NCBI GenBank assembly: GCA_012295275.1
Contig: CM022679.1
Span: forward strand, 29,326,001-29,390,000
DNA length: 64,000 bases
DNA from: Chrysomallon squamiferum
Lineage: Eukaryota; Animalia; Mollusca
Direction: 5' to 3'
Under the pieces are notes generated by a model. It saw nothing but the letters and a program-made list of their open reading frames with translations, was not told the DNA's origin and ran no database searches. Of this stretch, positions 25,401 through 53,400 are shown in pieces (the stretch's first letter is position 1; every line of letters begins with the position of its first letter). A program made the position numbers and the translations under genes.

Positions 25401-28400
25401 ATGCTTCAAGTCAGCTTTCTGGCAAAGAAGTGTAATGTATTTAAGTCTAAAAAATTTCAAGAAGAGTAAGTATACAAAAATGTATCTAACCCTAGTTGGC
25501 AAAGAAAAACAAATGCACAAAAATGTAATTAAGGTTTCTGTTTGCAGTAGTGCAGTTTGTTTATTTTTAACTACTGTAGATGGTTGTATTTTTTGTATAT
25601 TTTTAACTGTTGTAGATGGTCGTATAGTTTGTATATTTTTAACTGTTGTAGATGGTTGTGTATTTTTAACTACTGTAGATGGTTTTATAGTTTGTTTATT
25701 TTTAACTACTGTAGATGGTTGTATAGTTTGAATATTTTTAACTGTTGTAAATGGTTGTATAGTTTGTTTATTTTTAACTGTTGTAGATGGTTGTATAGTT
25801 TGTTTATTTTTAACTACTGTAGATGGTTGTATAGTTTGTTTATTTTTAACTACTGTAGATGGTTGTATAGTTTGAATATTTTTGACTGTTGTAAATGGTT
25901 GTATAGTTTGTTTATTTTTAACTCTTGTAGATGGTTGTATAGTTTGTTTATTTTTAACTCTTGTAGATGGTTGTATGGTTTGTGTATTTTTAACTACTGT
26001 AGATGGTTGTATAGTTTGTTTATTTTTAACTCTTGTAGATGGTTGTATAGTTTGTTTATTTTTAACTACTGTAGATGGTTGTATAGTTTGTTTAATTTTA
26101 ACTGTTGTAAATGGTTGTATCGTTTGTTTATTTTTAACTGTTGTAAATGGTTGTATAGTTTGTTTATTTTTAACTCTTGTAGATGGTTGTATGGTTTGTA
26201 TGGTTTTGTTTTTGTTTTTTTAACTGTTGTAAATGGTTGTATAGTTTGTTTATTTTTTAACTACTGTAAATGGTTGTATAGTTTGTTTATTTTTAACTAC
26301 TGTAAATGGTTGTATGGTTTGTTTATTTTTAACTACTGTAAATGGTTGTATAGTTTGTTTATTTTTAACTACTGTAGATGGTTGTATAGTTTGTTTATTT
26401 TTAACTACTGTAAATGGTTGTATGGTTTGTTTATTTTTAACTACTGTAAATGGTTGTATAGTTTGTTTATTTTTAACTACTGTAAATGGTTGTATAGTTT
26501 GTTTATTTTTAACTACTGTAGATGGTTGTATGGTTTGTTTATTTTTAACTACTGTAAATGGTTGTATAGTTTGTTTATTTTTAACTACTGTAAATGGTTG
26601 TATAGTTTGTTTATTTTTAACTACTGTAGATGGTTGTATAGTTTGTTTATTTTTAACTACTGTAGATGGTTGTATAGTTTGTTTATTTTTAACTACTGTA
26701 AATGGTTGTATAGTTTGAATATTTTTAACTACTGTAAATGGTTGTATAGTTTGTTTATTTTTAACTCTTGTAAATGGTTGTATAGTTTGTTTATTTTTAA
26801 CTACTGTAAATGGTTGTATGGTTTGTTTATTTTTAACTACTGTAAATGGTTGTATGGTTTGTTTATTTTTAACTACTGTAAATGGTTGTATAGTTTGTTT
26901 ATTTTTAACTACTGTAAATGGTTGTATAGTTTGTTTATTTTTAACTACTGTAGATGGTTGTATAGTTTGTTTATTTTTAACTACTGTAAATGGTTGTATA
27001 GTTTGAATATTTTTAACTACTGTAAATGGTTGTATGGTTTGTTTATTTTTAACTACTGTAAATGGTTGTATAGTTTGTTTATTTTTAACTACTGTAGATG
27101 GTTGTATAGTTTGTGTATTTTTAACTGTTGTAAATGGTTGTATAGTTTGTGTATTTTTAACTGTCGTAGATGGTTGTATAGTTTGTTTATTTTTAACTCT
27201 TGTAGATGGTTGTATAGTTTGTTTATTTTTAACTACTGTAGATGGTTGTATAGTTTGTTTATTTTTAACTACTGTAGATGGTTGTATAGTTTGTGTATTT
27301 TTAACTCTTGTAGATGGTTTGGTTAAGAAGCTGGAAGAACTGGAGAGGTGTGGAGAGATGTATCAGGGAATGATTCTGAACACTCGAAAACTGCTTAAAG
27401 CTAATTTTGATCTGTCGCAGTCACATAAAGGTAATACATGTACTTTCTGTTACATTATTATTTATCACAGCAGAAGAAACAGTGTGTTTCGTGAACTGTA
27501 ATCTGTTCACTGTTCATTGTGATGGGTGGAATATACTTTTAAAAGAAAAGGTTAAATTAAAAAACAAATATTAAGATAAAACATAATTGTGTTTTTGTAG
27601 CATTATGTATGTTATGTAACTCTGATTTTTAAAAAATATTTTGTGTTTTTAAACAGTTGATTTTTGTGATATTTATTTTATTTTTATTTTTTGTGGTAAC
27701 TTTTATATAATACAAGGATGACTAACATAATAAGATACCACAGTATTTAATTTTTGGACTAAACTTACAAAAAGATACAAATTTTAACAATTTAAAAAAA
27801 AAAAAGAACCCTTTGAACCTAGACTGTTAATAATTTCCACCAAAACTTAAAAACATTCACACTCTCGTGTTTTAACTAATAATGCCATGTTCATTATGTG
27901 TTCAGCTAATCAGTTTGTGATCCAAAAATGGATATTGAAAATTTCCTCCAGTTTGCCTGGGTAACTGTGTATATGAGAATATAGTTTTATAGTTTTATCA
28001 GTGATGTTTTTCTAAATGGTGCTAACTGTTTGCAGCGTTTGGTGAGGTGTTTTCTGGGATTGGAGTGAGAGAACCTCAGCCTGCTGCCAGTGAAGCGTTC
28101 TCCATGTTTGGAGAGGCACACAGAAACATGGAGAAGTTTGCTATCAAAATGCTGAAAACTGTCAAACCTGTGAGTTCTGTCATCTGACATGTTGTAAAGC
28201 ATTTAATTAGTGCTTTCAGTGTACATACAAAATATTTAACACAGCCATGTGACGTTTTTGTATATACTTGAAAAAAGCAAAAAAAAACAACAGTGAAATG
28301 TTTAGATATAATTTGGTTAAAGTAAATGTTACAAAACATAAAGCTTTACTAAGCTTTTGCTTGTCGTTGTTAATGCTATGCACACAAGAGATAAGAATTA

Positions 28401-50400: not shown

Positions 50401-53400
50401 ATGCATTTTTTGTTGATATATAAATATCTGTATACATAAAAAAAAAGAAAACAATAAGTTGCTTAAATAAATTCTTGACTTCCAAGTAAGTGTTTTATTG
50501 TTAAACTGTCATTCTGAGTCATACAAACAAATTGCTTAAGCTGATATACTTCAATGTATGTGTTAATGTCAAAAACAATGAGTAAAAACAAAAACTGGCT
50601 AAATACATTTAACATATTGCAACTTAACTGTTTATCAGACTAATGATCAGTCACTTATGACGATAATAAAATAACAAAAAATAAAAAATATCATAAAAAT
50701 ATCATAAACAAAAAAAATATTTAGAAAATTCCTGACAAGACAAAAAACAACAACAACAACAACACCACAAACCTTCAATCTGTCTCTTCTCCTCCAAAAG
50801 CCTCCTTTCTTCTTCTCTCTTCTTCATCTTGGCTAACATGTGGGCAGCTCGGATTTCCTCAAACGAGAACTCGCCCAGTCCTGCGTAGATTTTGTCTTTG
50901 CAGTACATGGGGATCTGGTACACGTTGGCTGCCTGGCCTGACGCTTGCTGAATGTGATGTAGTGGAGGCTTTTCAGCTTTTTTCGCACTTGAGAATATAA
51001 CATAAATAGGAAATGAAATTTAAAAAAAAAAAATTAACTTTTGAATAAATATTGGGTTTTTAAGAAGTGAAAAAATATATTAAATATTAATTCACACTTA
51101 TTACCATTACTCTGTTGTAATTATTATTATTATTATTATTATTATTAATATTATTATTATTATTATTATTTGTTTTTTTGCTGCAATAACAAAACTGTTT
51201 TACATAAACAAAAATACACAAAATTAAAAATGTCTTTAACACAATTCTGACTGGAAAATAAAATTGATGTGGGCATGCTTATCCATTCAAATGTTACAAA
51301 ATCATTTAATGATTGTCTAAAAATATTTTTACACACAGAGTTATCAAGTAAATTAACATCTATTGTGTTTTTTGTATTACATTACATGAAATAAAAATCT
51401 ATTAACGCTGGGAAAAAAAAAAGAAGAATATAATATATATAAATCCAAAAATAAACAAACAAAACAAGTAAATTTCTTGTACCTCAGTATACCATCATTC
51501 CATTCAGGTAATTTGGGCTGTTGCCTGAAATAGATTAGATATCAGTAATATTAGCATGTAATAGATTCAAATGCATGAATTCTTTTAGAATAATAAAAAT
51601 ATTTATAACCCATGCAGATAATGATGCATTTATTAGTTAAAAATAAAAAATTATTTGTAAACATTACTGTAGATGACTGTACATATTGAGGTGTTTGGAA
51701 TGGGAAAATAATTAAATGAGGATAAACTGTGCAATCTGTTCACAGTCAGACAAGTGTGACTCACTCAGTGGTATCTTCCAGTACTTTTCTGACAACTTCC
51801 AAATGAATTAATTCTGATAATATCTTAAATAATTGCTAAAATCAGTTTAAAAATAAAAATAATATTAAAGATGCTAATTATCCAAAAAATAAAAAAATAA
51901 AAAATAATAATAATAATTCCTTAATGAAATTATTCTCTGCAGAAACAAACATGCAAAAACACATCTGAATTAAAAGGTATGTGTGGTTTTTTTAAAAACA
52001 AAATTTGGTTTTGTTGTATTTGATGTATAGCAATTCACAGTGGAATGTGACTCCTGTGAAAGAAGATTTTGTTGTGGGAAACTCACACAATATCTTGGCT
52101 GTCTTGAGTGTCTTCGTAAACAGCAAACGCTGGCACACTGGGAACACTGGCTGCAGCCACCAACCCAGCTTTCTGTGGCAGCTGAAAACATTTTTCAAAG
52201 TCAAAAATTATTTGATTTAATAAACCAAAACAGCATCTTAATTAATTTTCAGATTTAAAAAAAAAAAGTTATCAAGACTCAACATTAAAATAACTTCAGT
52301 ATTTTTCGTAACAAAACCACTGTACCTTCACTTTGTAGTTTTTGAGATTCGACATTAAAATATCTTCAATATTTTCGTAACAAAACCGCTGTACCGTGAC
52401 TTTGTAGTTTTCATAACAAAACCACTGTACCTTCACTTTGTAGTTTCTGAGATTCGACATTAAAATATCTTCAATATTTTCGTAACAAAACTGCTGTACC
52501 ATCACTTTGTAGTTTTCGTAACAAAACCACTGTACCTTCACTTTGTTCCATGGACCTGGTTTCTTCTCGTTTTCTCTGTTGGCCTGTGGACGTTTTGGCA
52601 CAGTCTTCCACTCTCCGGTCTGCACAGGTGCACTGTCCACGCTGTTCTCATCAGTAAATATCTCAAACGGCTGCTGCTGAATCTGTGGCTTTGTCTTTAC
52701 GTCTGTGTGTACGATCACTCCTCCTCTTGATGCTGTCAGATTAAAATAATAATTTAAAATAGTCTAACTGAGGTTGTGGGTCTATTTATACTTGAAATGA
52801 TTCCATGATGATTTTTTTATGGGTACTGTGGTCCATTAGTTTGACAGCCTAAAACCAACTTTGTCTATACCAGTGGCTCTTGCTTTTAAGTGAATAATTT
52901 GAATTAATTTTAGTCCCTAAGTTCTATTTTATACCATGACATAAGTGTAATGAATTATGCAGTGACATTATAAAAATTTATATATTAAAATGTCCAGATT
53001 TTATAGCTGCCTTTATCATTTATGTTTGGTTTTGCAAAGGGACACAACTGTTACAATTACAGATGGAAAAAAACAAACAGTTTCCAATGTTCAAACACAT
53101 CACAATAATGAAATCATTCTTACATGTGACAAAATCATATTTGACAAATCTTGGATAAAGAACTTTAATTTAGTCCAAAAAAAACCCCAAAACATTCAAG
53201 TGAACTAATTTTAATGTTTAGTGGTTTAATTTAATGTAAATCTGTGAAGTAAGTACAGGATACAAGATCAACTAAAATAAACAAGAAAATATCTCCAAAT
53301 AAACACTTGACTGCAAAACTGAAATCATGATATAGTGATTTATGATCATTACTGTGCTTTACATATTTTTCAAATGATATTGACAGTAAGGAATCTTCTG

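Follow-up and report, generated by a model that had tools for sequence, protein, structure and literature searches.

Why do introns of two adjacent housekeeping genes of the mollusc Chrysomallon squamiferum carry tandem arrays built from the splice junction beside them, and do these arrays control splicing or are they merely tolerated? The arrays lie in a window (the whole stretch of DNA analysed) of 64,000 nucleotides, in which three genes, PICK1, BUB1 and FASN, were modelled. The three models have open reading frames, and 59/59 of their introns run GT..AG. The two genes that host the arrays are:

22449..31502, forward strand: PICK1 gene, 10 coding exons, 409 amino acids plus stop, host to three arrays.
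41482..56328, reverse strand: BUB1-family gene, 24 coding exons, 1228 amino acids plus stop, host to two clear and two doubtful arrays.

Both models are open, with GT..AG introns in 9/9 cases for PICK1 and 23/23 for BUB1. The gene names proposed by the first-pass annotation stand, as exons of both genes match the corresponding domain families and solved structures. In PICK1, exon 2 aligns with PDZ chains from solved PICK1 structures (E 3e-35), and exons 6, 8 and 9 match Arfaptin; a comparison of exon 6 with the PDB returned no match. Two BUB1 exons match Mad3_BUB1_I (Pfam), and one of these also matches BUB1B/BUB1 chains in the PDB. A protein search returned three matches at 29-38% identity (an unnamed protein, one from Saccoglossus and one from Mytilus), which by themselves point to an animal without fixing the phylum.

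Five arrays span a junction. Each was found where it had been reported, and listing of the copies places the true splice site, together with exon bases, in every one of them.

25554..27319, forward strand: acceptor array of 49 copies of a 36-bp unit in PICK1, identified from its tandem copies and a junction scan.
29891..30000, forward strand: degenerate donor array of ~22-24-bp units after PICK1 exon 8 (end 29894), the weakest of the five.
30172..30483, forward strand: acceptor array of 6 copies of a 53-bp unit with 7 exon bases per unit; true acceptor of PICK1 exon 9 at 30477.
43417..44004, reverse strand: acceptor array of ~23 copies of a 25-bp unit; true acceptor of BUB1 exon 21 at 43433.
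52275..52546, reverse strand: donor array of 5 copies of a 36/69-bp unit with 11 exon bases per unit; true donor of BUB1 exon 6 at 52536.

The junction scan was ungapped and compared 118 junctions with 2153 control AG/GT positions outside the arrays. A loose scan matched 9/118 junctions and 94/2153 controls (4.4%). Strong matches came from four arrays (111-375 matches), and five weak ones (14-18) were dropped as background because controls matched at 4.4%. The degenerate 23-mer array was undetected by this ungapped scan and was recognised through a motif count. Its further AG/GT junction motifs (AG|GT) end at 29917, 29939, 29963 and 29997, which places four extra motifs within the first 130 nt of the intron, where 57/59 introns show none.

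The 36-mer unit comprises 20 or more intron bases and 6 exon bases, the 25-mer unit 8 intron and 16-17 exon bases, and the 23-mer unit about 2-4 exon bases. Thus the earlier description of each unit as a splice site plus 6-15 exon bases is right about the splice site and too narrow about the exon portion, which measures about 2-17 bases. Extra copies sit on the intron side of the junction, and the arrays share their introns with non-repeat sequence and a distinct opposite intron end. The terminal copy of the 36-mer holds the exon 5 acceptor (27314), and from homology we infer that this last copy is the functional acceptor. The units are mutually unrelated, as had been proposed: at up to 25% mismatch each matches a single locus, its own, and a common mobile unit as the source of the arrays is rejected on this ground. 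Unit lengths are 23, 25, 36, 53 and 36/69 bp, and the share that are multiples of three (2/5) is about chance level. Variant bases are grouped in blocks along the copies, as judged by inspection without a copy tree.

The arrays had also been said to present near-perfect decoy sites. This holds for the 53-mer, which retains AG in 5/5 decoys, each of which would yield a stop, and for the 25-mer, which retains it in 19/22, with an open frame from none. It fails for the 36-mer, whose 48 upstream copies have kept AG in 24 cases and lost it in 24; the nearest five AG-bearing decoys there are in frame and without a stop in PICK1 exon 5. The four decoy donors of BUB1 exon 6, which lie 36, 105, 141 and 210 nt downstream, all retain GT, keep the frame and introduce no stop. 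Within the 36-mer, variation is greatest at the G of the AG (22 G and 22 A in 44 full copies). Selection against decoy AG is not claimed, because six positions are commonly variable and the copies, being of shared ancestry, are not independent.

Two further arrays in BUB1 come close to a donor.

48319..48680, reverse strand: 41-bp array that reaches the BUB1 exon 13 donor at 48675.
46741..47020, reverse strand: 40-bp array that begins 22 nt inside the BUB1 exon 16 donor at 47011.

Both had been listed with a third array, at 56847, as abutting splice sites. The third does not: the nearest modelled junction of the three genes is 665 nt away, and the array lies upstream of the BUB1 start codon. 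The Tandem Repeats Finder edge of the 48319 array falls ~54 nt inside its donor, and its distal copy has AG|GTATA, as does the true donor. Its alignment to the exon 13 donor scores 31, above all 58 other donors and reached in 1/1000 shuffles. The array is possibly an older, decayed junction array and a sixth case, with a match that is mostly intronic. The 46741 array scores 26 across its donor, a value equalled by 1/58 other donors and 14/1000 shuffles in a test that is partly circular; the result is weak because seven array-junction pairs were tested altogether. With so slight a resemblance, its standing as a junction array at exon 16 is doubtful. Alignment scores reject both arrays as junction arrays at their acceptor ends, and the 45298 array is ruled out at either end. 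A FASN array (9539-9675) is rejected as well, with a score reached by 9/58 other acceptors and 177/1000 shuffles.

Is this more than would be expected from arrays scattered over introns? Under a null model of uniform seeding and equal growth, 1.0-1.3 of the nine intronic minisatellites would be expected to span a junction, and five do (P 0.002-0.004, in a single window hand-picked post hoc). When the weak 23-mer is left out, 4/8 arrays in the same window do so (P 0.01-0.02). The local excess at junctions is therefore genuine under the uniform-seed null within the window. The four other intronic minisatellites of these genes show no clear junction span, so arrays are common here anyway, and none of the 54 FASN junctions has a spanning array.

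RNA evidence covers one of the five arrays, the BUB1 exon 6 donor, and comes from assembled contigs rather than raw reads. In runs X6 and X7 (studies P2 and P1), spliced contigs carry the joint 52536-52181 between exons 6 and 7, and their loose ends reach into exons 5 and 8. They show zero depth across the 52275..52546 array, despite all four decoys being in frame. Decoy donor use at exon 6 was not seen in 2/2 spliced contigs, an assembled product that drops rare isoforms. The claim that the exon-proximal copy is always the functional one is thus seen in RNA at this site (1/5 arrays) and elsewhere follows largely from geometry, because no other copy is joined to the remaining exon.

Contrary to the suggestion that such arrays had not been described, junction-spanning minisatellites are an already described repeat type, of which the present arrays are another example. 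The available accounts report them as "mirages" in amphioxus (PMC3087553) and in several human genes (PMC1557585). Amphioxus mirages are reported from Adh3, the globins BflGb6 and BflGb9, troponin C and PGBD5, at several loci per genome, and normal splicing is reportedly undisturbed (PMC3087553, PMC3902484). Their units are given as 10-160 bp, at either boundary, with AG/GT in many but not all copies; how they arise is described as unclear, and it has been suggested that they give rise to new introns (PMC3087553). The five arrays studied here likewise span boundaries, have units of 23-53 and 36/69 bp, differ in sequence by locus and keep AG or GT in many but not all copies (24/48, 5/5 and 19/22 acceptors; 4/4 BUB1 donors). 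Unlike the amphioxus loci as described, they are concentrated in two adjacent genes and reach 49 copies, against 3-6 for BflGb6. The human examples treated in PMC1557585 are the 37-bp VNTR of F7 intron 7 and the minisatellites of CBS intron 13, 6-16 intron 2, LMNB2 and PDGF intron 4. In the F7 type the first unit spans the exon-intron boundary, and the donor is therefore repeated in the intron. That account has the most upstream donor alone used in F7, LMNB2 and PDGF, and two pseudo-sites additionally used in 6-16 and CBS (PMC1557585). BUB1 exon 6 splices from its most upstream donor in the contigs, like the former and unlike the latter, with no pseudo-site use seen. The human examples given are all donor-side, whereas 3/5 arrays here are acceptor-side. 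In human duplicated genes, De Grassi and Ciccarelli (2009) described internal tandem repeats located at exon-intron boundaries, with 162 alignments and 27 intron modifications after curation (PMC2812944). Minisatellites sit at boundaries in both settings; the human repeats, as presented there, change the structure of genes or give rise to introns in recent paralogues, whereas the present ones lie in single conserved genes with intact coding sequence. A literature search that included few subscription papers and no supplements found no study that had tested genome-wide, in an invertebrate, whether minisatellites spanning junctions are enriched.

Taken together, the arrays are probably minisatellites of the mirage type, likely arisen by ordinary small duplications and likely persisting without function. 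With RNA from one site, they are likely tolerated by-products rather than a control system. Each would begin with a small duplication of a stretch straddling an exon-intron boundary, and the array would then grow and homogenise by slippage or unequal exchange, as any minisatellite may. Decoys would be outcompeted by the site that has a partner across the complete exon, through exon definition or through 5'-3' scanning as shown for human F7, presumably because they hold an exon stub alone. Arrays may persist because the spliceosome continues with the copy that adjoins the complete exon, as the RNA indicates at one of the five. Transcripts from occasional decoy use would mostly contain premature stops and so be cleared, and copies would drift, so that many lose AG or GT. 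The idea that selection keeps those expansions that grow into the intron agrees with the anatomy and with the RNA at BUB1 exon 6. The local excess would come mainly from short introns, abundant minisatellites and the choice of window. The unrelated units, the block-wise variants (as in concerted evolution) and the loss of AG from 24/48 36-mer copies speak for the mirage explanation. Against it stand the 5/9 versus 1.0-1.3, which uniform seeding and survival leave unexplained unless an extreme window happens to have been chosen, and the variable G of the 36-mer AG, which could mean selection against decoys in copies that are not independent.

The same excess is the main argument for a rather unlikely alternative, that tandem duplications start at boundaries at a higher rate than in the remaining intronic DNA, with breaks, R-loops, polymerase pausing tied to co-transcriptional splicing or a step in composition at the boundary as conceivable causes. 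The arrays would again be functionless, with a non-random birth, and the 48319 array would add a possible decayed sixth case. The excess comes, however, from a single window picked for showing the pattern, in which FASN contributes 0/54 junctions, and its null presumes uniform seeding and equal growth. A tunable isoform or NMD device, as the first-pass annotation had entertained, is improbable. Through regulated decoy use PICK1 would gain 12-residue units or BUB1 12-70 residues, or transcripts would be degraded, with the outcome tuned by copy number. The in-frame, stop-free decoys (4/4 at BUB1 exon 6 and the five nearest AG-bearing ones at PICK1 exon 5) would suit it, many human loci show an association of repeat length with splicing (PMC10078293), and decoy use is possible, since some pseudo-sites are reported as used in human 6-16 and CBS (PMC1557585). 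Yet the proximal donor alone appears in the contigs of two studies, decoys tested in 3/5 arrays yield stops or frameshifts exclusively, half of the decoys of the largest array lack AG, and the frame-keeping pseudo-sites of F7 are described as silent as well (PMC1557585); the device is unsupported.

Mis-assembly is a very improbable source of the arrays or of their lengths. Contigs of DNA run X2 enter the 52275-52546 array from both flanks with 0 differences, one internal contig has 1 difference, and a 66-base piece from run X5, of a third study, shows 4 differences; run X2 is not necessarily independent of the assembly. The differences seen are base differences alone, and structured, block-wise differences among copies are not expected from stutter. 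In favour of an artefact, no contig bridges that array, and the 1.77-kb and 590-bp arrays were outside the run comparison. The least probable reading is that the arrays are introns in the making, or that the 23-mer AG|GT motifs form a recursive-splicing ladder that removes the intron stepwise. Intron gain from mirages has been proposed (PMC3087553) and intron creation is reported for human repeats at boundaries (PMC2812944), and the 23-mer units do run GT...AG. Each array, however, lies within an intron that has non-repeat sequence and its own other end, the open frame needs no additional exon, and the host intron of the 23-mer is merely 582 nt long.

As mirage-type minisatellites, the PICK1 and BUB1 arrays offer a clean and dense instance of a repeat type that has been described but little studied. 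Junction-spanning arrays can mislead gene annotation, and for studies of splice-site choice the acceptor-side arrays add to the human cases, which are donor-side. Seeding above chance across the genome would matter more, because the origin of mirages is given as unclear and new introns have been proposed to come from them (PMC3087553). The odds are against minisatellites arising preferentially at exon-intron boundaries, in this genome and those of some other animals, by a mutational process linked to splicing or the boundary itself. If they do, the dense, high-copy arrays, the 49-copy acceptor array among them, would allow a genome-wide test both of the seeding process and of how the spliceosome chooses among dozens of near-identical 3' splice sites.

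Three gene models were built by hand and then checked by script in this AT-rich animal DNA (GC 0.24-0.38).

187-19126, plus strand: FASN, 28 exons in the window
22449-31502, plus strand: PICK1, 10 exons
56328-41482, minus strand: BUB1-family gene, 24 exons

Each translates through without an internal stop. The introns, 59 in all, are GT..AG throughout, and their median lengths are 358-605 nt. Gene identities come from single-exon searches, which returned KAsynt_C_assoc for FASN, PDZ and Arfaptin matches and solved PICK1 PDZ chains for PICK1, and Mad3_BUB1_I and kinase matches with BUB1B/BUB1 chains for the BUB1-family gene. 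The acceptor of FASN exon 14 (9708) is AAG with a nearly absent pyrimidine tract; a decaying 25-30-bp array (9539-9675) lies upstream and the reading frame stays open through it.

The arrays named in the first-pass annotation were recovered by TRF. When all 118 junctions were searched for their own copies in the adjoining intron, four matched strongly: PICK1 acceptors 27314 (36-mer) and 30477 (53-mer), and, on the minus strand, BUB1 acceptor 43433 (25-mer) and BUB1 donor 52536 (36/69-mer, array 52275-52546). Five weak matches were rejected as background level, control sites matching in 94/2153. The fifth array, a 23-mer 3' of PICK1 exon 8 (donor 29894), is degenerate, and was identified by four additional AG|GT donor-like motifs within 130 nt; such motifs are absent from 57 of the 59 introns. 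The arrays are real and were correctly seen. The annotation's 6-15 exon bases per unit describes the 36-mer (6), the 53-mer (7) and the 36/69-mer (11), and fails for the 25-mer (16-17) and the 23-mer (about 2-4). Because the units are unrelated, the arrays represent five separate births. Sequence variants are grouped in blocks along them. PICK1 intron 29895-30476 (582 nt) is mostly taken up by junction arrays, the 23-bp donor array at one end and the 53-bp acceptor array at the other.

Such arrays probably begin as short tandem duplications that straddle a boundary: the intron gains an extra splice site carrying a stub of the exon, while the gene, as the anatomy shows, remains intact. Ordinary minisatellite turnover would then extend and homogenise the array, the spliceosome would stay with the splice site that adjoins the complete exon, and the decoys (extra splice-site copies) would drift, often losing AG or GT. 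In the PICK1 36-mer (49 copies), AG is kept in 24 of 48 upstream copies, with AA in the remainder; the five nearest AG copies would insert multiples of 12 residues, in frame and free of stops, and more distant ones would hit stops. The 53-mer retains AG in 5/5 and every decoy leads to a stop, as do both GT decoys scored in the PICK1 donor array (n=2). The BUB1 25-mer retains AG in 19/22, none giving an open frame, and the BUB1 donor array retains GT in 4/4, all open and in frame. Since a boundary duplication leaves the whole exon on one end copy only, an exon-proximal working site is largely geometry; only frame-preserving decoys make its choice a genuine question.

The BUB1 stretch is present in nine sequencing runs (one organism, three studies, all contigs). 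Over 52040-52790, one contig each from X6 (study P2, RNA on record) and X7 (study P1; spliced, its 'DNA' label a guess) joins 52536 to 52181, skipping 354 nt and extending into exons 5 and 8, with no depth over the array. The proximal donor 52536 is the one seen used, despite four in-frame alternatives. Human F7 is alike in that its functional pseudo-donors remain silent (PMC1557585). The earlier statement that the functional site is always the exon-proximal copy is borne out at 52536; at the other four sites it would hold on the strength of the open frames and of F7. Because rare forms are lost from contigs, minor decoy use may occur. A regulated isoform or NMD role for the decoys is improbable. 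That the arrays are artefacts is more improbable again: for the BUB1 donor array, X2 (DNA) contigs that cross both flanks into the repeats with 0 differences count against it, and so does a 66-base piece in X5 (study P3), which differs at 4 positions. No contig spans this array as a whole. Intron creation or recursive splicing is the least probable reading.

The pattern is real and already described, and the present arrays are a dense addition to a known kind. The annotation's suggestion that it was undescribed does not survive: F7, 6-16, CBS, LMNB2 and PDGF carry minisatellites whose first unit lies across an exon-intron boundary (PMC1557585), and of six tested features of mirages, the boundary-spanning tandem repeats of amphioxus, three were found here and none failed. 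Repeats at boundaries have been counted in human duplicated genes (PMC2812944), and repeat length has been tied to splicing in humans in a report whose covered passages were not found to deal with the junction-spanning layout (PMC10078293).

Other features were noted between and beyond the genes. Putative first exons of small secreted cysteine-bearing peptides, with a signal-peptide-like start and then C-x3-C ahead of a GT donor, lie at 38625-38717 (minus), 39540-39630 (plus) and 60560-60658 (minus); the one scanned had no Pfam match. The first two form an inverted, divergent pair (85% identity over 150 nt) with a second common block (37162-37372 / 40544-40754). A signal-peptide-like open frame rich in lysine/glutamate (34965-36231, plus), whose RKR/KR pairs suggest a prohormone-like precursor, shifts after about 138 codons within a 24/48-bp repeat (35279-35470), maybe by repeat slip or assembly error; its downstream frame had no Pfam match. 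Upstream of BUB1, 56100-59500 and 60650-64000 form a segmental duplication (blocks 77-86% identical, one piece inverted), in both copies of which a 26-bp minisatellite lies beside a possible minus-strand start codon (56828, 60658). Both also have a (TC)n tract, in one copy 520 nt long. An 18-57-bp array (37464-37655) supplies the pyrimidine tract for a short exon on the minus strand; it ends about 10 nt from that exon's acceptor (about 37450), the AG not being copied.

Once adjacent TRF rows were merged, the 59 introns were found to hold nine minisatellites with a period of at least 15 that are not simple sequence. Under a simple null, in which each array was collapsed to one unit, seeds were uniform and wholly exonic seeds were dropped, the per-array chance of spanning a junction is 7-21%. 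In this one window, selected for the pattern, five span against 1.0-1.3 expected (P 0.002-0.004), or 4/8 when the 23-mer is omitted (P 0.01-0.02). A junction-biased origin of arrays would accord with this local excess; against it stand the selected single window, the 0/54 FASN junctions affected and the simplicity of the null, and we regard it as unlikely. Three further BUB1-region arrays had been said to abut splice sites. That at 48319 gives a better alignment with its own donor than with any of the other 58 (1/1000 shuffles) and keeps AG|GTATA in a distal copy, which makes it a possible sixth case in decay, but the donor match is mostly intronic. The array at 46741 is doubtful, and that at 56847 was rejected, lying 665 nt from any modelled junction. 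No genome-wide enrichment test of junction-spanning minisatellites in any invertebrate was found in the literature covered. The remaining interest of these arrays lies in whether exon-intron junctions give rise to them more often than chance would.
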